A DNA stretch of 49,437 nt, the filler included, from Jimgerdemannia flammicorona (Eukaryota), in NCBI GenBank assembly GCA_003990765.1. It is 2 parts of 2 records of this genome, joined end to end, with 100 filler letters (N's around TTAATTAATTAA, not from the genome) between each part and the next. Parts side by side here need not be neighbours in the genome. Positions count along the whole stretch, not along the records: positions 1 to 24,671 come from RBNJ01000944.1; 1 more part is not named here. One strand, given 5' to 3'. A model generated the notes under the pieces. It saw only the letters and a list, made by a program, of their open reading frames with translations. It was not told where the DNA came from and made no database searches. Position numbers and translations under genes: made by a program. Positions 2,653-37,245 of the stretch are shown here, one piece after another; position 1 is the first letter of the stretch, and every line of letters begins with the position of its first letter.

Positions 2653-3700
2653 CTATTTTCCTTGCCTCTTGGCAGGCCTCCTCATTAACATCCAGCATAC
2701 CATCGCTGTTATCCCAGCCATAGCCAAGATGGCTGGTATTAGCCATAAAGATGATATTTTTCTTTCTAATTCAGTTGTTTTCCTACCTCAGATTTTAGCA
2801 TAACCTTCAGGATCACGGAGTTTTTCGGCAATATGTTCGCTTTCCATAGTGCCTGAAATTTTGTTATCAGTAGGTCGTGCTTCATTTGGTAGTCATCACT
2901 TTTGCAGTTTGTATCTAGGAAATAAACCAACTACCAGCTCAGAATTACGATAATTATTAACAAAAGCTGCAGGAGTTTTTGATTCTTCATTTTTAAGATT
3001 TCACTCTTCTCAAAGTCAAATTTTAACAGTGAAATCATGACAAGCATCTTTATCTTCCATCTTCTGCATTAACTCTTTGAGCATTTCACCAATTTCTTTT
3101 CAAGTTTCTTGGTTGATAGCATTAATATCATTAGGTAAGTGAGCCTTGGTGGAGATGTCTGTAATTCCCATATTAGCATATAACTTAGCCACTATTTCAC
3201 TCTTTTTAGCAATCACTCTATTCTGATCTGACTGGAGAGCTGTTGTAATTTATTTGGCATTTTCTTCTATATAGTAATGTCAATTATTTTTTCAATCTGT
3301 CTCAACATTGCCCCAATACTTCTTTTACTTAGGCACTACCTGCATATAAAAATGAGGAGGTTTGTTGACTCCTGACAGTTTTCCAATAGGAATTTCTAAG
3401 AAATAACCTACTGAATGATAAACCTTATCAATTTTTTTGATACTATCTTTTAAGACTGGCAATATATCTACTCATTCTTGATCAGTTAAACCCCTTAAAT
3501 CTTTTATATGATGTTTAGTAATTACTACTATATGAGCTTTAATATTAGGGTGATAATTAACTGAAAAAAAAAACAGTTCTACCCAGATCAGATAATCAGT
3601 TTTTGAGTTGGTTCTTTTGTAAAGAAAAGCAAGCTTTTACACAGATCATATATTTTTTTTTTCTGATATAGCAGTAATAATTAATTTTTAATAAGAGTAG
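2653..3700 (-). pseudogene. Intron-less tandem HIT-family (histidine triad) hydrolase with C-terminal membrane anchor; reads best with TGA=Trp
   Basis: Minus frame ...NYHPNIKAHIVVITKHHIKDLRGLTDQE(TGA)VDILPVLKDSIKKIDKVYHSVGYFLEIPIGKLSGVNKPPHFYMQVVPK... follows the HIT pattern (P..GH..VIPK.H..DL..LT..EW; G...G....H.H.H/Q..P). A second degenerate copy reads HLPNDINAINQET(TGA)KEIGEMLK...LVVGLFPRYK. The C-terminus is hydrophobic: SLWLIPAILAMAGITAMVCWML-RRPAKRQGK, TAG at 2655-2653. The frame holds 10 TGA and 2 TAA; homopolymer frameshifts occur above ~3560. Confidence 0.75.
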
Positions 3701-7276: not shown

Positions 7277-7991
7277 TGCTTCTTCCATGCTTAACAGAAG
7301 TAGCGGTACATTTATGAGAGGAAAAATTGTTCCTACGTACCCGATCATTGGAGTGAAGAGAGCAAAGTGCGCGGGGGGCGTGGTGTTTGTCTCAAAAAAA
7401 AAAAATCCAGTTACGTCACGTCTTGTTTTGTTGCAGCACGCCCCATATAGTGTACTTTATTAAGTCACTTATATCCTGCGCCTCAGTGACATTTACGAAT
7501 GACGTCAGCCTTCAGGGGGGGTAGTGCATTGCCATTCGCTCATGCAAAAAGAAAAACAGCACGGCGTCACCCAGTATAATGATGATGTCATCACCAAAGC
7601 CACCCGCAATTTTTACGCCTCATCAAAAACAACCCGTCGCGTCTTACTATATCAAACGGACGCACACATTTGAATCTAGCCAGTCGCGGTTTGTCAGATT
7701 TCTCATGTTTTTGCTGATTCATCTGTCTCTAACATACGTTTTTTGCCTTTTGGTTCCAAGCTGACGAGTCTCGCACGCGTTTGCTCCACTTCAGCACCTT
7801 AGACTCGCGAACTCTCTTGATTAAAGTTGTTTGGTAAGTATTGCTGGAGTGCACTGTGTTCACGGCAGAGTAACCTTGTGGGAGATGATTACTTGAGTGT
7901 GAGATTGGGCAGAGACAGTCTTGGTTCGAGAGAGTCAATAGGCACCTTTAGTTTCATCTTTTGCTGACCTTTTTCGATTTTACTGAACAGA

Positions 7992-8165
7992 ATGGCGAGG
8001 ACAAAGCAAACGGCAAAGAAATCGACAGGCGGCCATGCCATGACGCAGCCTCTACAGTTACTGGAAACAAGGTCCTCCAGCCTGACCCCTGCTGGTGCCT
8101 CCGCCCATCCATCGAAATGAAGGAAGACCGGGTCCAAACCCCCACACTACCAAGGTGATGACAAG
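7992..8165 (+). pseudogene. H3-tail-mimic gene, copy 1, first coding exon (downstream exons not found)
   Basis: MARTKQTAKKSTGGHAMTQPLQLLETRSSSLTPAGASAHPSK*RKTGSKPPHYQGDDK, then phase-0 donor AAG|GTATAT at 8166. An acceptor CAG lies just before the ATG. No histone-fold sequence follows. Confidence 0.8.
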
Positions 8166-8217
8166 GTATATATTCTCTCTAGAAAAAAAGCAGGGTTTTG
8201 ATCATCAAGGTCTGCAG

Positions 8218-8699: not shown

Positions 8700-9410
8700 T
8701 CAGTCCCTGTTTATTGTCTCTGTTACAACGAATGATTTTTTACCCTCAAACGCTATCCCAAAAAGCAATTTTTTTTTTACATCATCTGAAACCCCCACCC
8801 AATACTGTTTTTCAATGATCTGATCAAGCGCCGTTTGCGCGAGTGTATCCAGGTTGTTTTCGCGGGCAACCTTGAGCTCCATCACAACCCCAGACAGTGC
8901 GCTCCGCAACTTAGGTTCTGCACGAACATCAAACCGCCCAAGCCCAGCCTCCCGATTGGATCTAACATTGTATCCGCGACGCTGCAGGGCAACAAACAAA
9001 CCCAGACAAAATGCATGGTAGAAAACCTCCGCCTTCTTCCCAGATTCACTCCCGCCAACATTGTGGAATGACAAGCACTCCATAGTCAGACTTTCAAACT
9101 CACGCTTGAATTTCTCGACATCACCCGACACCAACGACTTGAGAAGATCTTCCACCTCTCCAGGATTGCGGAGTGCCGGAACGATCCAGTCGACCCACTG
9201 CTCCGAATTCGGTACGACAAACTGACCGTCCCGGATGGTGAGATAGCCAGCATAGTACAGAAGTGTCCACAGTGCTCGATCGTCATGGACTGCAAGGTCC
9301 CCATAGGACATGTTGTCGCTGAGTATATATTTGACAGGCTTGCGGTCGACCAGATCTGAAACGGCATCCTTGAATTTCTGGCTCGCATTCGAAAGGTGGT
9401 TTTTGATCCT
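8700..9410 (-). pseudogene. C-terminal exon of AAA-ATPase-like / PD-(D/E)xK nuclease (DUF1703/PDDEXK_9-type) protein; upstream exons missing
   Basis: Family motifs LWTLLYYAGYLT, VPNSE, EVFYHAFCLGLF, RSNREAGLGRFDV, VVMELK, ALDQIIEKQY and GIAFEGK are present. The N-terminal part of the 304-aa ORF is intron-like low-complexity sequence. Confidence 0.85.
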
Positions 9411-9517
9411 CCTTTTTTTTTTTAAAAAAAAAAAGGGAATGAATAAATAAAGAAAATAAAATGAGACCCGAGCAACAAATGCGGACAATACACTCAGAAA
9501 ATATGTATAGTGCACCA

Positions 9518-10546
9518 CACTTATACTCAACTTTTTGCTACTCCTTTTTAATGTATTTAATAATAATAATAATAATAACATAAATTGATAGAACATCCTA
9601 TAAAGTTTAATCAAATAGAGAGCTTTTTTTTTATTATTACATATAATATTTTAATAAAAATAGTTTTTTCATTATTTTATAATAGATAATGAGACCGATC
9701 ACAATTTCGGCCTTAAATTAAAGCCAAATCACAAATTACTGGTCACAATTTCAAAGCCATAGGGGCTGAAATTATAGCCAGTTACACATTTTGGCCTTAA
9801 ATCAATTACTAAAATTGCTGAATTCCCCTTCAAGCCAGTCAGTTACTTTAAAAGTAAGCCAGCAAGCTGCTCAAGCCGCTTGTGCTGCTATCACTGAGTC
9901 TTCACCAAGTTCTTCCCAGAAAGAGAACTTGGCAAAGGGGAACTCGGCCTTCATAAAGCTGCTCAACCCAGCCAGTTACACAATTTTGGCCTTAAATCAA
10001 TTACCCTTTTGCCGAATTTCCCTTCAAGCCAGCCAGTTACCTTAAATCGATTGGTAATCAATTTAAGACCAAAATTGTGTAACTGGCTAGGTTGAGTAGC
10101 GAATTCTACTAAGTCACAAATTAATAGTTGCATGTGAACTTATGCTCAATTTTTTGTCACTCCTTTTTGCTACTCCTTTTTAATATATTTAATAATAAAA
10201 AAATAAAAATCATAAATTGATAGAATATCTTATTAAGTTTAATCAAATAGAGAGCTTTTTTTATTATTACATATAATATTTTAATAAAAATGGGTTTTTT
10301 TACTATTTATAATTTAGAATATTACAATATATAAATCCCTTCTCCTCTATATTAGCTATATTAAATAAAAATATTATTAGAAATATATATAGTAAATATT
10401 ATCTATTTTAATCAAATAGAGAGTTTTTTTTATATTTTTTTCTAGTTATAATAATATATAAATTTAAATAATATAGTTATTAGTATTATAATATAGAGAT
10501 ATTGTTACTCACAAAGGCCAAAATTGTGGCCGGTCACAATTTTGGC
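9518..10546. repeat. AT-rich repetitive block: ~165-bp direct repeat (~9520-9685 / ~10140-10310), repeated CACAATTTTGGCCTTAAAT motifs, terminal 12-bp hairpin
   Basis: The duplicated sequence is directly visible. GCCAAAATTGTG-GCCGGT-CACAATTTTGGC at 10517-10546 is a perfect inverted repeat. Probably a non-autonomous TE remnant. Confidence 0.6.
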
Positions 10547-13466: not shown

Positions 13467-13859
13467 AAAGTTTAGAACAAAGTCTTAATCTCAGCGGATC
13501 GTAGCAACAAGGCTACTCTACTGCTTACAATACCTAGTTCTATTTAAGTCGTCTGCAAAGGATTTATCCTCTCCAATATTTGAAATTGCAATTCGGAAGC
13601 AAGGAACGCAGCCATTCCGCTACGCACCCGGTACCCCCCTAGTATGATTCAGGAGCCGAGGCTCTATTGTTATTCGACTAAACATGGAGAAGGTATGGAT
13701 CGTCGCTTCTAGCACGGATTCTGACTTAGAGGCGTTCAGCCATAATCCAGCGGATGGTAGCTTCGCGGCATTGTCTTTTCAGACAACCGCAAATACCAAT
13801 TATCCGAATGTAGGGTTCCTCTCGTACTAACTTCAATTACTATTGCAACAACTTTTCAT

Positions 13860-13900
<41 letters not shown>

Positions 13901-14033
13901 CTATTAGTGGGTGAACAATCCAACGCTTACCGAATCCTGCTTCGGTATGATAGGAAGAGCCTATCCCTGTGGTAACTTTTCTGGCACCTCTAGCCTCAAA
14001 TTTCGAGGGACTAAAGGATCGATAGGCCACACT
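13467..14033 (-). pseudogene. Dispersed 3' fragment of 25S/28S rRNA gene with two internal deletions
   Basis: Reverse complement of the LSU 3' region: sarcin-ricin loop (GTTCCTCTCGTACT at ~13815), GGATTCTGACTTAGAGGCGTTCAG, TATCCCTGTGGTAACTT and 3'-terminal CTTAATCTCAGCGGATCG. Conserved segments are missing at ~13900 and ~13961. Confidence 0.93.
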
Positions 14034-15639
14034 AAATGATGTAGCAGGGGGATTTCTGCTAGATGCCGTTGCTCGCAAAAAGTAGCCCTGCAATGAGTAC
14101 AACCCACCCTCAACAAAACTCACTGGAATTACAAGCAGCCACACACCAAATCAAATGTAGCAGACAGTAGGATGGGTCAGATAGGCTGGAGTGCAATTGG
14201 ATAGGCTGGAGTGCAATTTCTGAAGGCAGGAAGTGATTTAGTGCAATTGCAATTCCCCGAAGCTCGGTGTCTTTATATATTTTAGAGAATTTGTTTCTGT
14301 ATGGCTAGCTATGCAGTTTCTCAACATGATGGATATACGTAACTAAGGGATTATGTTTTCCGATGGGTGACTTAGACCTAACTAACTGGAGTGTTTTTAA
14401 CCTATCTGTGAATTTCATGGGAGAGGTCCACGTGGACATTCTGTTTTCCTAAAATTTGCCTGTCAGAATGGGAAGGACTATCGACAACGCAAGAGCGACG
14501 GTAAAATTGTGGCCGAGACAACTGAGCATCCCATAATATCTCATTACATCTTAGTACAACGGCGTTTACATTGGTGCATGTCAGCAGGTTGTGGGTAAAT
14601 AAAAATGCCGGCTCAGGGTGATGCATGGGCCTAAGAAGAAAAGGCCCGTACATTATATGTATTATTTCTGGATCTCTATGGACAGGTCGAATGAGTCTAC
14701 AAACTGGCCTTTGGGGATTGTGAATCGCCGAACCTGGGATTCTGTGTCAGTGCAAAAGAGCCAGTGCGGCCCGCACCACTTCAGGATGACTATGCTGGTT
14801 TGGTCATTCAAGAAAGCAATACAAGCAATAAGAACCTGTTAATTCGGGTGCACGATCAGGTGACCGTCTGGGCGCACAATTTGTGGGTGATGTCACTGGT
14901 GGCACACCAAAGCTCTCGACGCGTTTGCTCCGCTTCTCCCTATTTCCCGACTCCTGAATTCAGATGCATGTTTGAATCTAGCTTGTCAGGCTGTCCAACA
15001 AAGAATCTCGAACTAAAACAACCATTCACCTATTTCCACGCATTTGCTGGTTTACAGTAGTGTTGTACAACAGACACGTTCATTCCACCTCTATCGTGTT
15101 TTTGCCTTTCGATCTCAACAAGCATCTTCAGTAGCTCATTCCGCCCGAGTTATTTGACAGACACTCAGCACATGCATCTTCACACAATAGCTCATTCCGC
15201 CCATGTCAACAAGTACTCGGATAGACACAAATCTCGACGCACTCTTCCAAATCTCGAGCTGACATATCTCAACCTTACACATAACGCATTCCGCCCAGCA
15301 CTCGGACAAGCTCATCACCTTAGACTCGTGGTAATGTTGCTGGGGTGCAGTGTGTTCACAGCAGGGTAACCTTGTGGTGGGAGATACTTAAGTGTGAGCT
15401 TGGGCAGGAGGCAATCTCGGTTCCAATTTACGCCTCTTACTGTTTACTTCATCTGTGTCTTATATATTGCATGTTTTCTCCTAACATACATTCAGACAAT
15501 GGCCCGCACCAGGTAAACAGCAAAGAAATCCACATTCGGTCGTGCACCAACCAAAGAATTGCTTGATCCACTACCAAAAGCGACAAAGCCTACTACGTCC
15601 AACCGAATGGCTTCGAGAGCTCTGAAGGTATATTTTGCA

Positions 15640-16530
15640 TATCGGCAATAATATTTCCCTTTTTATTTATTTTATTTTATGGGTTATATATCATGTCTGG
15701 CTATCTGCCTTGATGATTTTACCTTTTATTATTTATCCTTTTCATGGGTTATATATTGTGTCTGGCTATCTGCCTCAGCAATAATGTTTCCTTTTTATTT
15801 ATTTTATTTTATGGGTTATACATCATGTCTGGCTATCTGCCTTGATGATTCTACCCTTTATTATTTATTTTTTTCATGGGTTATATTATTGTGTCTGGCT
15901 ATCTGCCTCAGCAATAATATTTCCCTTTATTTATTTTCATGGGTTATATATATTGTGTCTGGCTATCTGCTTCGGCAATAATATTTCCCTTTTTATTCCT
16001 TTTATTTTATGGGTTATATATCATGTCTGGCTATCTGCTTCGATGATTCTACCCTTTATTATTTATTTTTTCATGGGTTATATATATTGTGTCTGGCTAT
16101 CTGCCTCAATGATTCTGCCCTTTTATTATTTATTTTTCATGGGTTATATATTGTGTCTGGCTATCTGCCTCGACAATAATATTTCCCTTTTTATTCATTT
16201 TATTTTATGGGTTATATATCATGTCTGGCTATCTGCCTCGATGATTCTACCCTTTTATTATTATTTTTTCATGGATTATATATTGTGTCTGGCTATCTGC
16301 CTTGGCAATAATATTTCCCTCTTTATTTATTTTATTCTATGGGTTATATATTGTGTCTGGCTATCTGCCTCGGCAATAATATTTCCCTTTTATTTATTTA
16401 TTCTGGGTTATATATTGTGTCCGGCTATCTGCCTCGACAATAATATTTTCCTCTTTATTTATTTTATTCTATGGGTTATATATTGTGTCTGGCTATCTGC
16501 TTCGGCAATTTCATTTTCCTTTTATTACAG
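15640..16530. repeat. Intronic tandem array, 13 units of 64-68 bp, core ATGGGTTATATA(T/C)(T/A)GTGTCTGGCTATCTGCCTCG, two largely alternating subtypes
   Basis: TCTGGCTATCTGC cores at 15696, 15761, 15828, 15894, 15958, 16026, 16092, 16156, 16224, 16288, 16356, 16420 and 16488. Confidence 0.95.
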
Positions 16531-18170
16531 GTTCACTAATATATTAACCTTTTATTATTCTAATTATACAAGTTATAACTGAATCTGATATCGGAAGACT
16601 TCCAACATCCCTATGTTGTATGTGCGGCCATGGAGATCGAGTTTTTGAAACCTGCAATATTGTAGGATGCCTCAATATGATATGCATTGAGCACAACGAC
16701 AGCAACGAGAAATCACCACTCTGTGCTTCTGGAGTACCTGAAAATACATGGATATGTCCTATGCATAACGAGACTGATGTTAGTATTATAATGATCACTT
16801 TTAACCAGTTTATATTATACACATAAATATTATTCTAATTCAAATTATCTCTAATCAGGTTCAAATCAAATATGATGTTAATATCAAAGTGGACATTCAA
16901 TCATTGGCGTTTAGTGAAATGGCATGGAATGCTATCATGGGGGCTGTGAATAGTACATTTGGAGGATATTGCGTAAGTGTTTATATTTTGGATGGGAGAG
17001 GTTGTAATATAATTATTATTAATTTATTTATAAATATTAAATATCTTATCTCATTTATTATTTATTTATATAAAAGCAAGGTCAAATATCCGTCTATTCC
17101 CACATCTTTAATGGTGGCAATTCTCTTCAACAATGTATACAAGATAGCATTCCAAATGGCGATCTGATGCACACAAATGGCTAATTATAAAAACACATGT
17201 GAATGAAGTTGGAGATCTTTGGATAGTGATGGGAATCCATGGTCACTTGCCAACAGTACAGTGAGTAAACTATATAATTTATTCATATATATATATATAT
17301 CAAATTCTAGATCTAACTATTGTAATTAGTTTTTCAACGCTCTTTTTGAGCAGTCAGAATACAGCGATATCAATCTTGTTCTTCTTGTCTGTGGTACTGT
17401 AATTCAACCTAAATCCAATAACAAAGAACAGATATTGCAGGCGCACATCTCGATTATTGATATTATCAAAAGGTCAGTTTATTAACATATATCTCAATCG
17501 TTGATATCAAAGGTTATTTGTATTAAGTATTATATATTATATAATAATATCAACCATCTACAATTTAACAGAGTTACTACTGGACGAGCATTACTATTGA
17601 AGGTTATGAATTTCAGCACATCCCTCTTGTCGTATCGGTCACTGTAAGATTCAATAGCCTTATGGGACACCAGTTTGGGTTCTGGAGGGAGGACAGGGAA
17701 CATATGTGCATCGAAAGGTTCAGCCTTGCAGCAAACATCCTCGGGCACATAAACACCAGAACAAGTTTTGTATAGATATTGGAAAATATGAGGATAAAAA
17801 CTATGTTGTACGTATTTTCAGATGCAATGCACCTAGGGTAGCCATTTAGCTATTGAACTATCATTTTGCCAATAAATGTAAATTTGCCATTATTGTCTTG
17901 CTATTCTATTCTTGAGCATTATAAAATGACACTTCGAGGTGTTTGAAATACATGAATATTTCGATGACAATCTCCGGGGTAATTTGTTTATTGAATTCCG
18001 AAACCTTTACCCATATACATCTATCTCGGACGCTGCCCCTCAGATATTCACTAACACTCAAGGTGGGATTTTTCAAAATATATCTCTTAAAGCATTCCTG
18101 TTGTAATTATATGGTTTTATGAGTTTATCAAAACCGTAAAGCCGTTGTACGTGACTATAGTCGATTGGTA

Positions 18171-18285
18171 GATCTGCCTCGACGATTATACCTCCCTTTG
18201 AATTTTTGTTTTTATTTCATGAGGTTATATGTCGTGTCTGGCTATCTGCCTCGACGATTATATCTCCTTTTTATTTTTAATTTAT
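18171..18285. repeat. Two further units of the copy-2 array motif in the presumed last intron of copy 2
   Basis: ATCTGCCTCGACGATTATA...GGTTATATGTCGTGTCTGGCTATCTGCCTCGACGATTATA matches the 15640-16530 unit and is followed by acceptor TTTTGAAAG|GTG at ~18294. Confidence 0.85.
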
Positions 18286-18733
18286 TTTTGAAAGGTGACA
18301 CCTCGTTGTGGTGTTCACGGTGTTCACAGAATTTATAACGAAGATGTGGCTTGTTCAATATGTTCCACCAATTTTGATCCCACCAAAACAAAAACGCGTT
18401 CACCCCCCAGTAACACACCTATGTTGCCCTTGTCTTCGGACATTCCGAGTTGTTCACTTTATATGTTCACCCGAATCGCTTAGCAAGCTTTGCCAGTATC
18501 GTCGGACGAGCTCATTCACCTCACACGTTCACCTGAGTTGTTCTGTAAGTGTTGTCTGTGTTGTTGGAAGGGTTCATTCACCTTATAAACCGAATCGCTT
18601 TGCAAGCTCTACCAGTGTCGTCGGACGAGCTTGTTCAACTCACACTAGCTCATTTACTAGTACGTTCCCCCAGGTTGTTGAGTATCCATCACCAGTAACT
18701 GTCACAGGCTCTCTTGCCGGTACCGACTTCGGA

Positions 18734-20885
18734 ATGGCACGCACCAGACAAACCGCAAAGACGTCGACCTTTGGTCATGCAGCCTGAAAAAGCCTCAACC
18801 ATGTCCAGGAGTCCGATCACTGTACCTACCAACCCCCCTACAAGGACACCGAGGCGTTCTGCTACAGTCAAGACCTGGCCATCTAATCAGGTATATCATG
18901 GTGTGGGGTTTTGATACAGAGATAGATGAGAGGAAGCCATATGACTATTCTTGCATTTACCTGGGATTTTTGGGCGAATGTGTGCGTGATTGAAGTCATT
19001 TTCACCACATTATTATTTTTTTTGGTTGGCGAATGTCTCTATGACTGAAGCCATTTTCACCACATTATTTATTTTGGGTTGGCGAACGTCTCTGTGACTG
19101 AAGCCTTGGTGAATGTCTCGTGACTGAAGCCTCCAGACCTTCCTTTCTATCGTACCACATTATTATTTATTTCGGTTGGTGAACGTCTCTGTGACTGAAG
19201 CCATTTCATTTATTTCGGTTGACGAACGTCTCGTGACTGAAGCCATTTCATTTATTTCGGTTGACGAACGTCTCTGTGACTGAGCCTTAAGACCTTCCTT
19301 TTATCATATGAATGGCGAACGTCTCTGTAACTGAAGCCATTTTCACCACATATTATTATTTTGGGTTGGCGAACGTCTCTGTGACTGAAGCCTTAAGACC
19401 TTCCTTTTTATTATTTATTTTGGGTCGGTGAACGTCTCTGTGACTGAAACCTTACGACCTTTCTTTTTACTATTATTTATTTTGGGTCGATGAACGTCTC
19501 TGTGACTGAAACCATACGACCTTCCTTTTTATTATTATTTATTTGGGTTGGCGAACGTCTCTGTGACTGAAGCCTTGAAAGACCTTTCTTTTTATTATTA
19601 TTTATTTGGGGTCGGTGAACGTCTCTGTGACTGAAGCCTTAAGACCTTTCGTTTATTATTTATTTGGGGTCGGTGAACGTCTCTGTGACTGAAGCCTTAA
19701 GACCTTTCGTTTATTATTTATTTTGGGTCAGTGAATGTCTCTGTGACTGAAACCATACGACCTTCCTTTTTATTATTATTTATTTGGGTTGGCGAACGTC
19801 TCTGTGACAGAAGCCCCTTTTTATTATTTATTTTGGGTCGGTGAACGTCTCTGTGACTGAAACCTTACGACCTTCCTTTTTATTATTATTTATTTTGGGT
19901 CGGTGAATGTCTCTGTGACTGAAACCATATGACCTTCCTTTTTATTTATTTGGATTGGCGAACGTCTCTGTGACTGAAGCCTTGAGACCTTTCTTTTTAT
20001 TGTTATTATTTTGGGTCGGTGAACGTCTCTGTGACTGAAGCCTTAAGACCTTTCTTTTTATTATTATTTATTTTGGGTCGGTGAACGTCTCTGTGACTGA
20101 AACCTTACGACCTTCTCTCTGTGACTGAAGCCATTTCACTACATTATTATTTATTTGGGTTGGCGAACGTCTCTGTAACTGAAGCCTTAAGACCTTCCTT
20201 TATCATATGATAATCACAATTTTCTAACATGATGTTTCCAATTTATTTTATTTTTAAAAACAAATCAAATATCAGGTTTCTCGAACCATCGACATTGGGT
20301 GCGTTCAGGGCACCATGTACTGTCTGTGTGGGACTGGAGGCTGTGTTCTCGAAGGGTGCAGCATCAACTACTGTTCCAATGCCATTTGTGTTGAGAATGA
20401 TCGGAATCATCCATGCGCACCTTCTATCGCTGAAGGAGCATGGCGATGTCCAACTCATGATGGCAGAACATCGGTATGATGGAACTCGTCGAATCGATAT
20501 TCAGACTATTGAGCTTGAATCTTTTTCAGAATGGGGGATACTCCTCTCAGCAACCAGATTGATGTTTGCTTCATATGTGTATGTATTCAGATGAGTGTTA
20601 TGTATTTATTCTTGGTGCTAATATTGATTAGATTTAGCTAACATGCTATTTCTATCTATATAGCATGATCAGATCTTGTTTACAAACCACTCTTTCTCTA
20701 ATGGAGATATGCTTGAAACTGTATTGACCGGATGTGAGTTTTACTCGGTTTATTTCATTTTGGGTTTTGGGTATTATGCTCTAACCAAAGCTCTGTTTTT
20801 TAAATTACATCATGTGGCTGAGCTATCTGTGAAACCTTCTCATTGGTCCTCAGATGGCATTCCTGGCCAATGGCTATATTCATGA
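18734..20885 (+). pseudogene. H3-tail-mimic gene, copy 3: H3 tail exon, array-containing intron, PHD/ADD-like finger exon and downstream exons homologous to copy 2
   Basis: Exon 1 (18734-18890) reads MARTRQTAKTSTFGHAA*KSL.../...TRTPRRSATVKTWPSNQ|GTATAT with one frameshift. The intron runs 18891-20275. Exon 2 reads VSRTIDIGCVQGTMYCLCGTGGCVLEGCSINYCSNAICVENDRNHPCAPSIAEGAWRCPTH. RYDGTRRIDIQTIELESFSEWGILLSATRLMFASY and HDQILFTNHSFSNGDML align with copy 2. Confidence 0.75.
18975..20200. repeat. Intronic tandem array, about 22 units of mostly ~55-62 bp, core GG(C/T)GAACGTCTCTGTGACTGAA(G/A)CC
   Basis: Directly visible conserved core separated by T/A-rich linkers of variable length. Confidence 0.95.
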
Positions 20886-32067: not shown

Positions 32068-35000
32068 ATGGATATAAGACCACCAGTATTCCATGGATAT
32101 ATCTCACATAAATCAATCATTACCTTCATTGATGATTTCGAGCAGTATGCTGCTGTAAGGACTCTGACAGCAGCACAGCAAGTAGCCCTCATGCCCTTCA
32201 GCCTATGAGGTCCTGCCAGAGCAGCATTCACAGCTGCAACCCATGCAGGAAATGATGCCGATGCCATACTGACAGCACAGAAGACCTGGCTCTGAAATAC
32301 ATATTACACAGACGAGATCAAGCAAGCCCTGAAGGATCAGCTCAACACAACATGCTAAGGAATGAGTGAGGATCCAAACACATTCTATACCAGAATTCGA
32401 TATCAGATAATCCTTGCAGATTATGCTACTGCTATCTGAGATCAAGTAGCCAAAGCAACCTTCATGAAAGGAGTCCATCCAGAAATAGCCATGGCCATCT
32501 GCTCATCACCAGTGATTCTGGATCTGCCACAGAAGGTCACCTATGCTCAGCAATACTGGATAGCCAGACACCCACAAGACCATATAATGGAGAGAGTTAC
32601 AGGAGTCAGAATTGAGGCACCCAAGGCAACCAGTGTAATCTCTACCACAATGACCAATCAAAACACACCTCAGCCAAAAGCTACAGAGCAGCAAAAGAAC
32701 AGTGACCCTATAGAGGAACTTGCCAAAAGGTTTGCTGAAATAACTGCCCACCTGGGAGATGTGGTAAAGGAAATCTGAGGAAGAGATCACCGTCCTGTTC
32801 AGAAGTTTGCCACCACCTCAGACAAGAAGAAAGGTACCTGCTATAGCTGCAGAGAAGAAGGCCACTACTCCTATGAATGTATGAGTGAAACCAAACACAA
32901 GGCTCAACCAAGCAATGCCACACAAAACAAAGAGCAGACCAATATAATTACCTTTGAAGAAATCGGAGAATCTGATGAAGAGGAATGGGAGGCCTATCCT
33001 GCTCAGACCACCAAGAAGGATGCTTGCAAAGAACCCTACAAGAGACCACAACCCAGTGGAAAAGTGGATGGAAACTGCCACAGAAAGCCAAGCCAAAGAG
33101 ATGGACCAAGATATCGAGCTGGAGCAAGCAGTTCAAGATATCATCTGAGGAACCACTCCAGCCAGTGAAGGAGAAAAAGAAAAGAAGCTTCGCAAGACCA
33201 AGACCTTCAAGTATAATATCTTCAAGGATCTCAGTCAACAAAAGGTCAATGCAACCTTTGGTCAGCTCACAGAAATCCCAACATTCAGACAGCAAATGAG
33301 GTTTGAACTTGCCGAAACAACCAAGGAACAAGGATGGAAGACAACTGAGACCAATAATGCTCAAGAAGACTCAGGAGAAGAAAGTAAGGACAATCGCAAA
33401 ATATCTGCTTATGCAACATACCAAATCAAGGATCGAGTCTTTGAAGCCATCATTGATACAGGAGCAGGAGGATGTCTTCTCAGTAAGAAGGCAGCAGACC
33501 ACCTAGGTTGGGATGTAGAAGAAGCAACTAAGCTAGTATTCATCACAGCCAATGGCACAAGAGCCACACCTCTGGGAAAGATCCGAGATGTTTCCATCAA
33601 GATCAGAGGAGCAACAATTCCAGTAGATGTAATCATAACCAATGCCACCAACTATGACATCCTCATTGGCAATCAATGGCTTCATAAAGCCAAGGCAGTA
33701 ATTGATCTCAATGCTCAGAAGATGCAGATCACCTACCGGGGACAGAAGATATGAATTCCCATCAATGTCAACAAAGGAGTCCTGCCCAATATGGAGGAAG
33801 AAGAGAGTGAGCAAGAGGAAGCTTATATGGTGACTATCCCAAAGAAGAAGAAAGTTGGATGGATGAGTGAAAAAGAATGGTGCAAGAAGATCGCAGAAGG
33901 CTATGCCCCACAAGGAGTCTGTCCTCATAGAATCAAGATGTACTGTATGGAGCATGTCAATGATTGCTACCAGTGCACCATTGGAACCAAGAAGATCTAC
34001 CAGGAAAGAAGGCAGAAAGCTCTCAAAAAACAGATCGAGGAAGAAGAGAAGGAGGAAGATGACAAACCACCAGCCCTCCTGGAGGACAGTGATGATGAAG
34101 AAGAAATCAAGGTCAAGATTCGAAAGATCCACCCTGATGCAGTCTTGCCAGAATACAAGTCAGAAAATACAGCTGGAATGAACATCACTACAATAGAAGA
34201 AACTGTACTTGAACCCCAGACAACCACCCTACTTGCAACTGGACTAGAGATGACTATCCCAAAGGATCATGTCAGGATTCTCAAGACAAGAAGCAGCCTG
34301 GCTAGAAGCGAAATCACAATCAAAGGAGGAGTCATTGATTCAGACTATACTGGAGAAATTCTACTCATTGCTAGGAACCACAATCCTACAATTCCATTCC
34401 CAGTCAAGAAGAAGGACTGATTGGCACAGATGTTGATCTTCCCAATCCTACAGCCAAGGATCATAGAAGTCAAGAATCTGGAGGAAATGAAAAGAGGAAA
34501 GAAAGGATTCAGATCCACAGAAAGAGGAGTATTTGCCAGCACCAAGATCACCAAACTCGAGCATAAGAAGGAGGAAAACACAAGCAAGCACAGTTACACC
34601 ATTGGAGACAAATTTCCACTCAAGGAGGAACTCAAGAAAATACTCAACAAATTCAAGGATGTCCTTACCACAGATTTCAAGGATATCAAGGGAAAGACCC
34701 CATACTACTATCATGAGGTAGATACCGGAGACACTGAACCAATTTATCAGAAGGCAAGACCTGTCCCGCCAGCCTACCAAGAATGGCTCAGAGAAGAAAT
34801 CAAGCAGATGGAAGAAGCCGGCATCATCATAGAAGCCAGCAGTCCCTGGTCTTCACCAGTTGTACTAGCCCCAAAAAAAGGAAGCAAACTCAGAGAATTT
34901 GCCCCAAGGCTCTGTGTCGACTACAGAAAGCTCAATGCAGTTATCAAGAAGGATCGCCAACCACTGCCGCTCATCAGTGACATCCTTATAACACTGGAAG

Positions 35001-37245
35001 ACAAAGCACAGTACTACAGCATCTTGGACTTATACTCAGGATTCCACCAAATCGGACTCACAGAAATGGCAAGTGAAAAGTCAGCCTTCATCACCCCAGA
35101 TGGAACCTACATCTACCTATGAATGCCATTCAGAATGTGCAATGCACCAGCAAGCTTTCAGCGAATGATGAACAAAATCTTCTACTATGATATGGGAAGA
35201 TGGATGATGGTCTATGTCGATGATGTAATCATCTACAGCAAGACATCTGAGGAATATCTGCAGCACATACAGCAGATAATGGAGAGACTAAGACAACATG
35301 GCCTTTATATCAAACCCAAGAAGTGCAAGTTTGCAGAAATTGAGATCTCCTATCTTGGCCATATTATCAATTGAGATGGAACACACATGGACCCCCTCAA
35401 AATTCAAGCGGTAGCAGCATACCCAAGGCCCACTACTGTTACAGAAGCCCAAGCCTTCATGGGACTTGCCTCCTACTATCGCAGATTCATTAGAGGATTC
35501 TCCAACATCGCAGATCCAATCTATGAGCTCAACAAGAAGGATACCAAGTTCCAGGGGACTGGCAGACAACAAAAAGCATTTGACAAACTCAAGATCAGAC
35601 TAACTCAGGTACCCATCCTCAGATGACCCAATTGGACCCAAGAATTTATCCTTCAGATGGATGCAAGCACACAAGGACTAGGAGCAGTCCTAGCTCAAAA
35701 AGAAGACAAAAAAGAGTATATCATTGCATACCTTAGCCGTGGAACCTGAGGGGCTGAAAAAGAATACAAGTTCCTACAAGTTGGAATACCTTGCAGTCAT
35801 CTGGGCTGTGGAAAAGTTCCACTACAATCTGGCCAGAAGACATTTCACCATCCAGATGGACCACTCAGCTCTGACAACTGGACAACCCAAGGGAATCTAT
35901 GCCAGATGGATAATGAAGTTACAAGCCTATGATGTAACCATTGTACACCGCCCTGGAAGAACAAATTCCAATGCAGATGCTTTCTCACAGACACCTCAAA
36001 CTACCTCCAACCAACAAATCAATCATGAATAAGGAGCTCTACTACAGAATTATCACATACCTGGGACAGCGAAAGATGCCCCAACATCTGGAAGAATGGA
36101 CACAAAAGATTATCAACAGGACATGGAAACAATTCGAAACTGACAGAGAAACACTGAAGAAAGGAAAACTACTAGTCATACCAGAACACAAGAAGGAGCA
36201 AGCAATGAAATCAGTACACAAACTTGGCTATCTAGGAGGAATGAATACATATGATAAGGCAAGAAGAACAATATGGTGGTCAGGGATAGAGGAAGATATC
36301 AGACAATTTGTCAAGACATGCAATAAATGCCAGAAACAGAAACAAGACCAACGGAATCAAGCCCCAGGATCAGCACACATAGAACCAGTACCATTTGCCC
36401 ATATAGCAATAGATGTAATCGGCCCTCTACCCTTGACCCTGACTGGTAGCTGATACATCATTGTCATCGTAGACCTTTTACAAAGTGGATCGAAGCAGGA
36501 CCCCTCAAGGAAGCCAATGTACAGTCAATCACCAATTTCTTCTACAAGGAAATCATCTGCTGGTTCAAGACCCCAATACAAGTAACTACAGATAGAGGAA
36601 CAGAATTCGTGAACTAGCTCTTTGAGGTTCTCTACAAGAAGTACAAGATCCAGCACATTTGGACCACAGCCTATCACCCCCAAGGAAACAGACAAGTAGA
36701 AAGAACCAACAAAACTTTCAAGAATGTTATTGCCAAGATCTGCGATAACTACGAGAACTGGGATCACTATCTGCCAAAAGCATTATCTGCTCTCCAAGAT
36801 ATCTGATCACAAAGCACCCACTTTACCCCTCGAGAAATGCTGTTTAGAGAAGAATGTTCTCAAGAAACCCTATCATCCAATGGAGATGCTGTATGGAAAC
36901 ATGTGGACATGGAAATACAGAGACTACACCAAATCAGGAAGAAGGCTGAGGATTACATAACCAAGGCGCAGACACTATAATAGTGAAATGTAGAAAGACC
37001 CACAAGCCCTTGGAGATTATCAAGATAGGAGACAAGGTCCTAGTGTATCAGAATATGGTAGAAGCTTCATGGTCATGAAAACTGGAGCCCAAGTGGGAAG
37101 GACCTTACCTTGTGCAAGATATAAAAGGGACCACCTTTTGGCTACAAAAACCCTCAGGCACAATAATCCCCACCACCATTCACTGAAACCGACTCAAGAA
37201 ATATCATGGCCAGCAACAAAAGTACTGTGATGGCACTCAAGATCA
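32068..37245 (+). pseudogene. gag-pol of family A
   Basis: MDIRPPVFHG (capsid), CYSCREEGHYSYEC (CCHC), IIDTGAG (protease), SPWSSPVVL...RLCVDYRKLN...LDLYSGFHQI...YVDD (RT), MDAS.QGLGAVL (RNase H), H..GY...CNKC, IAIDVIGPLP and TDRGTEF (integrase), and W.GPY motif. Many stops are present and no chromodomain was seen. Confidence 0.95.
34103..34530 (+). pseudogene. dUTPase domain between protease and RT of family A
   Basis: IKVKIRKIHPDAVLPEYKSENTAGMNI (motif I), TRSSLA (II), GGVIDSDYTGEI (III), D*LAQML (IV) and KRGKKGFRST (V). Confidence 0.92.

Follow-up and report, generated by a model that had tools for sequence, protein, structure and literature searches.

The DNA analysed here, a stretch of 49,437 nt joined from two records of the genome of the fungus Jimgerdemannia flammicorona (GCA_003990765.1) and called the window throughout, is eukaryotic, repeat-rich and intron-containing, and it carries three gene copies whose first exons open with a close imitation of histone H3's N-terminal tail. 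At a probability of roughly 0.55, these copies are decayed members of a family of H3 N-terminal mimics whose tail was held extended by a tail-reading module, the simplest candidate for which is the Cys-rich finger of the same protein. The paralogy of the copies, their exon plan, their lesions, past selection on the tail and the recurrence of the plan in a second, sequence-unrelated family are directly supported; binding of the tail by the finger is suggested by sequence and by analogy with known systems. The intact ancestor would have carried an H3 copy of ~16 residues at its mature N-terminus, then a short Ser/Thr/Pro-rich linker, a Cys-rich finger for two zinc ions whose ligand pattern is PHD-like, and finally an alpha/beta domain.

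The copies, their lesions and their relatives

The H3-like starts lie at ATG codons at 7992 (copy 1), 15499 (copy 2) and 18734 (copy 3), all on the + strand. A sequence-only reading of this DNA had placed all three within 15499-18790, a range that does hold copies 2 and 3, copy 1 lying well outside it at 7992-8168. The starts are real and not products of chance: a degenerate pattern, itself written from the three, matches three times in the window versus 0 times in 100 dinucleotide-preserving shuffles. Translation from 15499 gives MARTR*TAKKSTFGRAP... for copy 2 and translation from 18734 gives MARTRQTAKTSTFGHAA* for copy 3 (asterisks mark stops), and 11 to 13 of the first 15 residues equal the canonical H3 residues of the sequence-only reading, which are also present in the protein P0017 and the metagenome locus L002 described below. 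These translations bear out the residue states listed in the sequence-only reading, together with its invariant blocks: in the order of copies 1, 2 and 3, position 4 reads K, R and R, position 12 G, F and F, and position 14 H, R and H; every copy has K at position 8, copy 3 alone has T at position 9, and A1-R2-T3, T6-A7 and S10-T11 are constant among the copies though their codons differ. Substitution in this sense is relative to the canonical H3 of that reading; the host's own H3 may differ, and metagenomes contain real H3 genes whose position 8 is K. Every copy begins M-A, an initiator Met followed by a small residue from which removal of the Met is predicted, and R2 is likewise present in all three, K4 being kept in one (R in copies 2 and 3).

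The likeness to H3 ends after about residue 16-20. When exon 1 past residue 17 was aligned locally to three real H3 tails (L002, L010 and L003, with 2000 shuffles each), likeness did not rise above shuffles in any copy (p 0.12-0.54, 0.10-0.64 and 0.18-0.52 in copies 1, 2 and 3 respectively). The stretch RKTGSKPPHY of copy 1, which had been likened to the later H3 tail, falls under this result and moreover sits behind a stop because of the TGA at codon 43. A protein search with exon 1 of copy 1 against longer proteins produced 14 candidates, none of which scored.

Copies 2 and 3 are built on a common plan of tail exon, GTATAT donor, minisatellite-filled intron, Cys-rich finger exon and alpha/beta domain, and the GTATAT donor closes the first exon in all three copies. 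Derived residues are also held in common: all three copies have K8, copies 2 and 3 have R4 and F12, and copies 1 and 3 have H14. Given these derived residues and the exon plan in common, the copies are paralogues that arose by duplication and not separate captures of H3. They are, further, non-histone genes, since the window lacks a histone fold: tblastn with two full H3 proteins (L010 and L003) found none in its 49 kb; the matches were confined to the three starts, over residues 1 to about 50, and nothing else fell below E 0.4. Pfam likewise gave no match on the open reading frames (ORFs) downstream of the tails.

Judged from their sequences, all three copies are disabled and are pseudogenes or fragments. 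Copy 1, with an in-frame TGA at codon 43, appears to be a lone first exon, no finger or domain homology being found downstream of it by tblastn with relatives or by hidden Markov model (HMM) searches of the window ORFs. Copy 2 appears nearly full length, with TAA in place of Q5 and an additional frameshift near 17176 that was read by eye. In copy 3, apparently truncated, the frame opened by the ATG ends after 17 codons. The length of exon 1 in this copy, 158 bases, is not divisible by three, and the +1 frame is the only one that meets the donor in a phase fitting exon 2. Because the phase-compatible frame is +1, copy 3 is frameshifted. It carries a second frameshift near 20466, placed by comparison with P0002, and its likeness to relatives ends after 20591 (tblastn), which truncates the gene. 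Repeat-induced point mutation (RIP) was considered as the origin of the two C-to-T-type stop codons and was rejected, the dinucleotide indices over the copies not being RIP-like (TpA/ApT 0.35-0.83; (CpA+TpG)/(ApC+GpT) 1.13-1.72).

The gene family to which the copies belong is very rare. A phmmer search with the finger of copy 2 against 1.84 billion representative proteins (E 1e-3 or better) returned six matches, five of them relatives (P0001-P0005, E 6e-10 to 9e-5); the other, P0006 (E 4.8e-4), was dropped as unrelated, its match consisting of six short stretches in a repetitive protein. A profile search with the window-family alignment (A3) returned only the already known P0004, P0002 and P0001, and none of the 258 pattern matches from a metagenome search with P0002 was confirmed. 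Against copy 2, tblastn places residues 75-111 of P0002 on 16871-16978 (E 7e-5), residues 241-287 of P0005 on 17646-17786 (E 4e-7) and residues 235-288 of P0004, a 292-residue protein from an ENA assembly, on 17661-17834 (E 1e-5). The two frames of copy 3 are 64% and 60% identical to P0002 (tblastn E 2.7e-25), and its finger exon is 38% identical to that of copy 2 over 55 residues (tblastx). No Pfam domain is found in the family part of P0001-P0005. P0005, a hypothetical protein of Endogone sp., has the family domain (residues 1 to ~330) fused to Rad52/22 (338-465, E 3e-19), and this gene model is probably two neighbouring genes merged.

In the finger, C6, C8, C18, C23, C28, C36, C47 and H50, together with W45, are invariant in 7/7 aligned sequences, an eight-ligand pattern in which an aromatic residue precedes the last two ligands and which we take to be the pattern of a PHD finger. 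The ten best named look-alikes of the window finger by protein-language-model features are all PHD-finger clusters (0.83-0.88), a lead only. A PDB sequence search with the window family gave no meaningful match, and Pfam on the fingers and neighbouring ORFs gave nothing above its cut-off save PDDEXK_9 at 8700-9650 on the - strand. For the domain that follows, the AlphaFold model of P0004 (mean predicted local distance difference test score, pLDDT, 57.9) has a confident alpha/beta core at residues 60-220, with the finger below 50. MALT1 and caspases are among its best Foldseek rows (E 3e-3 to 2e-2), none of which reaches 1e-3; VIA-align ranks Rossmann-type oxidoreductases (Z 9.7) above Dronc (8.9) and SAVED-CHAT (8.0); and the atlas look-alike of the alpha/beta domain, DUF6642/CHAT at 0.77-0.88, is again a lead only. 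Fold searches of the alpha/beta domains gave no match at E 1e-3 or better, and caspase-like, flavodoxin-like and Rossmann-like folds are all among the weak matches. A Cys seen in the domain of copy 2 is missing, by eye, from P0004 and P0005.

Selection on the tail and a second fungal family

Over codons A1-A15 the proportion of synonymous differences (pS) is 0.60-0.86 and that of nonsynonymous differences (pN) 0.07-0.16, giving pN/pS of 0.26, 0.18 and 0.11 (Fisher p 0.006, 5e-5 and 8e-4; the pairs are non-independent). The synonymous sites of the tail are near saturation while the peptide has been kept. These values support purifying selection on the tail in the past, as the sequence-only reading had surmised from the synonymous divergence, and, because the copies have one origin followed by duplication, the selection acted on these genes themselves.

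Metagenomes were scanned for the tail with position 8 required to be K, and 13 loci resulted. By their translations, five of these (L002, L003, L009, L010 and L011) run in frame into an apparent histone fold and five (L001, L004, L006, L008 and L012) into non-histone ORFs, the remaining three (L005, L007 and L013) being neither clearly the one nor the other. In L004 and L006 the next exon holds a Cys-rich finger, and both splice sites of L004 are in phase 0. Other loci show further arrangements. L001 has an intact ORF of 204 codons at 126-740 on the + strand (208 aa from stop to stop), whose first ~26 residues follow the H3 tail and whose remainder is acidic, of low complexity and without a histone fold; it is a candidate stand-alone long H3-tail mimic. 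At L012 a 221-residue non-histone ORF with an H3-like start (1205-1867, +) stands back to back with a divergent ORF (588-1130, -) that holds a Cys-rich finger, neither ORF having a Pfam family, and at L008 (650-1000, +) an H3-like start passes directly into an unrelated ORF that Pfam does not match.

A search with the domain ORF of L004, its tail excluded, returned 17 hypothetical proteins of Pisolithus and Scleroderma (P0007-P0023). Nine of the 17 carry an H3-like stretch of the form MA[RQ]T..., after which come a Ser/Thr-rich linker, a finger and the domain, and in five of these models the tail stands at residue 1; in the other four it is internal, where it may lie behind over-extended gene models. 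A profile of the finger against PDB gave 34 rows, 32 of them PHD-finger proteins by name (best E 0.0026). The family is expanded, with many paralogues and up to 9 near-identical sequences per 90% cluster. These proteins resemble the window family in the order of their parts (H3-like start, Ser/Thr-rich linker, Cys-rich finger, alpha/beta domain) and in the tail positions that are free to vary, and differ from it in having no detectable homology to it. Their domain has H267 and C316, a candidate His/Cys dyad of the caspase-like kind, invariant in 14/14 sequences, whereas the window relatives P0004 and P0005 lack both by eye.

Several other features of these proteins may be recorded. The domain of P0007-P0023 contains an invariant KIIFVTVHS and a conserved STLFMLTCG-type stretch with an invariant Cys, and P0008 and P0011 have long extra C-terminal parts with one stretch in common. 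A fold search with the model of P0017 gave flavodoxin-like and caspase rows mixed. In its AlphaFold model, tail residues 15-23 (APRVRLILG) have a pLDDT of 50 or more and a beta-bridge, residues 1-14 and 24-97 falling below 50.

Taken together the two families yield a sample of 12 distinct 20-residue tails, three from the window, eight from the Pisolithus family and one from L004; two of the 12 are identical except at position 18, and in L004 the search pattern itself dictated positions 1-11. The H3 residue is kept in 12/12 tails at positions 1, 3 and 15, in 11/12 at positions 2, 7, 9, 11 and 13, in 9/12 at position 17, in 7/12 at position 16, in 6/12 at position 4, in 4/12 at position 10 and in 1/12 at positions 8, 12 and 14. 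Between positions 7 and 17, each odd position is better kept than each even one (exact P=1/462, post hoc). Variation in the tail alternates by position and does not follow modifiability, and it has the look of one face of an extended peptide, not of a modification-state code.

Setting of the copies

The coordinates of the copies and of the elements associated with them are collected in Table 1.

Table 1. Features of the three copies and of the DNA between them, in order along the window
Feature	Position	Strand	Basis or remark
Upstream element of copy 1	7832..7927	+	blastn of the window against itself; starts with splice-donor-like GGTAAGT
Copy 1 exon 1: H3-like tail, K4 kept, TGA at codon 43, GTATAT donor at end	7992..8168	+	
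Upstream element of copy 2	15329..15423	+	82.5% identity over 97 bases to 7832-7927 (blastn)
Copy 2 exon 1: H3-like tail, TAA for Q5, GTATAT donor at end	15499..15627	+	
Minisatellite in copy 2 intron 1, 64-base unit, 13.4 copies	15642..16526	+	Tandem Repeats Finder
Copy 2 Cys-rich finger exon, 8 conserved Cys/His and Trp	16569..16778	+	phmmer, invariant columns, tblastn
Copy 2 rest of body (alpha/beta domain, C-terminal part), several frames	16859..17846	+	tblastn, HMM pieces
Two-unit remnant of copy-2-type minisatellite, between copies 2 and 3	18172..18289	+	blastn, 74-82% identity to units in 15642-16526
Copy 3 exon 1: H3-like tail, frame lost past codon 17, GTATAT donor at end	18734..18891	+	
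Minisatellites in copy 3 intron 1, units of 42-62 bases	18973..20115	+	Tandem Repeats Finder
Copy 3 finger exon (20273-20467) and domain start, frameshift near 20466	20273..20591	+	tblastx, tblastn

The upstream elements of copies 1 and 2 resemble each other much more closely than the tails that follow them do at synonymous sites; these elements open with donor-like GGTAAGT or GGTAATG, an acceptor-like CAG precedes each ATG, and they may be an intron of the 5' untranslated region or a conserved control element. An Rfam search found no match there. The intron 1 minisatellites of copies 2 and 3 have units of about 62-64 bases with a T-rich core in common, and that of copy 3 is partly like the unit of copy 2 (tblastx).

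Directly downstream of the lone exon of copy 1 lies a 316-residue ORF at 8700-9650 (-) with a PD-(D/E)XK nuclease domain (PDDEXK_9, E 8e-13). A fragment of large-subunit (LSU) rRNA at 13467-13958 (-) separates copy 1 from copy 2; it consists of two matches lying side by side (238 and 88 bits), both to the 3' end of eukaryotic LSU rRNA, and covers positions 2884-3399 of the 3401 of the model. Further along, at ~32-37 kb and 40-49 kb, the ORF listing includes long ORFs that are retroelement-like. Nothing in the window pointed to KDZ transposons. The observed/expected ratio of CpG is 0.19 over the retroelement pol-like ORFs at 33149-36453 vs 0.99 over the PDDEXK_9 gene, and the low value looks like methylation-driven CpG loss limited to repeats; RIP-like dinucleotide indices are not seen. 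Two sequencing runs contain 0.22-0.24 of the sampled words, and no RNA run is among them.

Readings of the tail and comparison with known systems

In the reading favoured here, the initiator Met would be removed, exposing residue 1 as in H3, given that the tail begins M-A. The free tail would then be bound in extended form by a tail-reading module, with the PHD-type finger of the same protein as the simplest candidate, and this putative binding could be in cis, as self-inhibition, or head to tail between molecules. The contact face would consist of residues 1-3 and the odd positions 7-15, K9 included, with positions 4, 8, 12 and 14 facing away; the substitutions would lie on an unconstrained face and would not encode modification states. 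Self-binding is favoured because an H3-like start and a finger of the type that reads N-termini would be parts of one protein, and because PAF15 and BAZ2B offer precedents.

A number of points weigh against this reading. With all three copies broken, nothing in the window needs a present-day function. The joining of tail exon to finger exon is a prediction from sequence; the donor of copy 2 is in phase 0 and the sole acceptor found is in phase 1, a mismatch, and phase compatibility exists only in copy 3, in its shifted frame. The models of P0001-P0005 all begin inside the finger exon, the tail being seen in 0/5, and neither Pfam nor a PDB sequence-profile search identifies the window-family finger as a PHD finger. 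Among the Pisolithus-family models that bear a tail, the internal position in 4/9 is a further difficulty. The two families are, besides, not demonstrably homologous: hhalign of the Pisolithus-family alignment (A6) against A3 gives E 0.59 over the whole and 0.44 over the fingers, and the A6 HMM against 2036 window ORFs gives a best E of 1.9. The plan common to both families could be convergence or coincidence.

Among the alternatives, the tail might act in trans as a decoy or surrogate substrate for the H3 machinery of the host (H3K9 and H3K4 methyltransferases, HP1-type chromodomains, PHD readers), by which a multicopy, fast-evolving and possibly selfish family may blunt or redirect silencing, the finger doing no more than bring the protein to chromatin. 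Viral histone mimics are known to act in trans. Such a role would suit the retention of K9 and A7 in 11/12 tails vs that of R8 in 1/12, the position of the copies in a repeat-rich region with retroelement ORFs, and the many near-identical paralogues of the Pisolithus family, and PAF15 is a known mimic of the trans-acting kind (PMC7060239). A decoy nonetheless names no partner, no transposase or terminal repeats are tied to the copies, the contact needs of chromodomains and SET domains are assumed, and a finger of the tail-reading type, always attached, is left without account; we consider it unlikely, though it is the main rival. That the copies are functionless debris, 5' pieces of real H3 genes shuffled beside unrelated exons by repeat-driven rearrangement and never selected, would sit well with the repeat-rich region, the lone exon of copy 1, the breakage of every copy and the end of H3 likeness after about residue 16-20. 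Debris would not be expected to have derived residues and an exon plan that point to one origin followed by duplication, nor a peptide kept since duplication over nearly saturated synonymous sites, nor the same plan in annotated genes of Boletales fungi, and this explanation is very improbable. Genuine H3 variant genes with histone-fold exons further downstream have the tail itself to recommend them and nothing else; for the window they are refuted by the H3 tblastn, the next exon in copies 2 and 3 encoding a Cys-rich finger, and this possibility is as good as closed.

The sequence-only reading had proposed that the paralogues may each mimic a fixed H3 modification state of their own, such as a tail that is permanently unmethylated at K4. 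To its credit stand positions 4, 8, 9 and 14, reported as differing among the copies, the presence of all three lysines among the 5 changed positions (P=0.022, a narrower post hoc test), and the K-to-R change, which by established chemistry prevents methylation of the lysine. Its premise that substitutions fall on modifiable residues does not hold up: 4/5 changed positions are modifiable vs 9/15 in the tail, where nine of the first 15 residues are taken to be modifiable, and the enrichment is not significant (hypergeometric P=0.29). The changed G12 and the variable P16 are not modification sites, and the best kept residues of the 12 tails include K9, R2, T3 and T11, each of them modifiable. 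At positions 4 and 14 the 12 tails have R, T, S, H, A and F in place of lysine, and none of these belongs to the usual mimics of modification states, of which Q and M are examples. Considering also that the copies are all disabled, distinct fixed states are highly improbable.

More broadly, at least two fungal lineages may have tethered, in sequence-unrelated families, an H3-tail copy to its own PHD-type reader and an alpha/beta domain, and the products might be chromatin-gated proteins or an anti-silencing decoy, a generalisation that we offer as a long shot. In the gated version a pseudo-histone tail would keep the reader, and perhaps with it a caspase-like protease of histone tails, shut until real H3 displaced it; in the other, the tail would serve a selfish multicopy family as a decoy against silencing. 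The face that is bound would be marked out by the alternating conservation of residues 7-17. The implications, if this is true, would be a little-studied layer of fungal chromatin control or of genetic conflict, and, if tail and finger do interact, a natural, genetically encoded pair of reader and ligand displaying the H3 residues that the reader needs. For the window alone the result is modest, as its copies are pseudogenes or fragments and the modification-state reading of them fails. What is new is a selected 16-residue copy of H3 at the start of non-histone proteins, beside a finger like those of tail readers, in a plan that recurs in an unrelated, expanded family of ectomycorrhizal Boletales. 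H3 N-terminal mimicry has so far been a matter of a few animal proteins and of viruses, usually over ~4 residues, and searches of open-access papers and bioRxiv preprints turned up no fungal family that combines an H3 tail with a finger.

Compared with canonical H3, the copies agree in tail residues 1-3, 5-7, 9-11, 13 and 15 and differ in lacking the histone fold and in having a next exon that encodes a zinc finger. We know of nothing in the present family that is like the role of PAF15. The N-terminus of PAF15 is H3-like and is recognised in the H3 mode by the PHD finger of UHRF1; unlike the fungal tails, that mimic is short, is bound in trans and serves ubiquitin signalling at replication (PMC7060239). 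PHD fingers also bind other non-histone N-termini that obey rules of Met removal, R2 and K4 (PMC8166343). Human proteins of this kind, the H3TMs such as VRK1 (Chen et al. 2021, PMC8166343), are likewise non-histone, have an H3-like start after the Met and are bound by PHD and Tudor readers, although as described there they mimic ~4 residues and have no linked reader, whereas the fungal copies extend to ~16 residues, have a PHD-like finger in the same gene and keep K4 in only 6/12 tails. In BAZ2B a histone-like linker binds the PHD finger of the same polypeptide, whose affinity for H3 is thereby lowered (PMC5663869). Such intramolecular mimicry is the mechanism favoured here for the fungal tails. 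The linker of BAZ2B is internal and its resemblance to the histone is, as described, of a Lys-rich kind only, whereas the fungal tails imitate H3 residue by residue at the extreme N-terminus.

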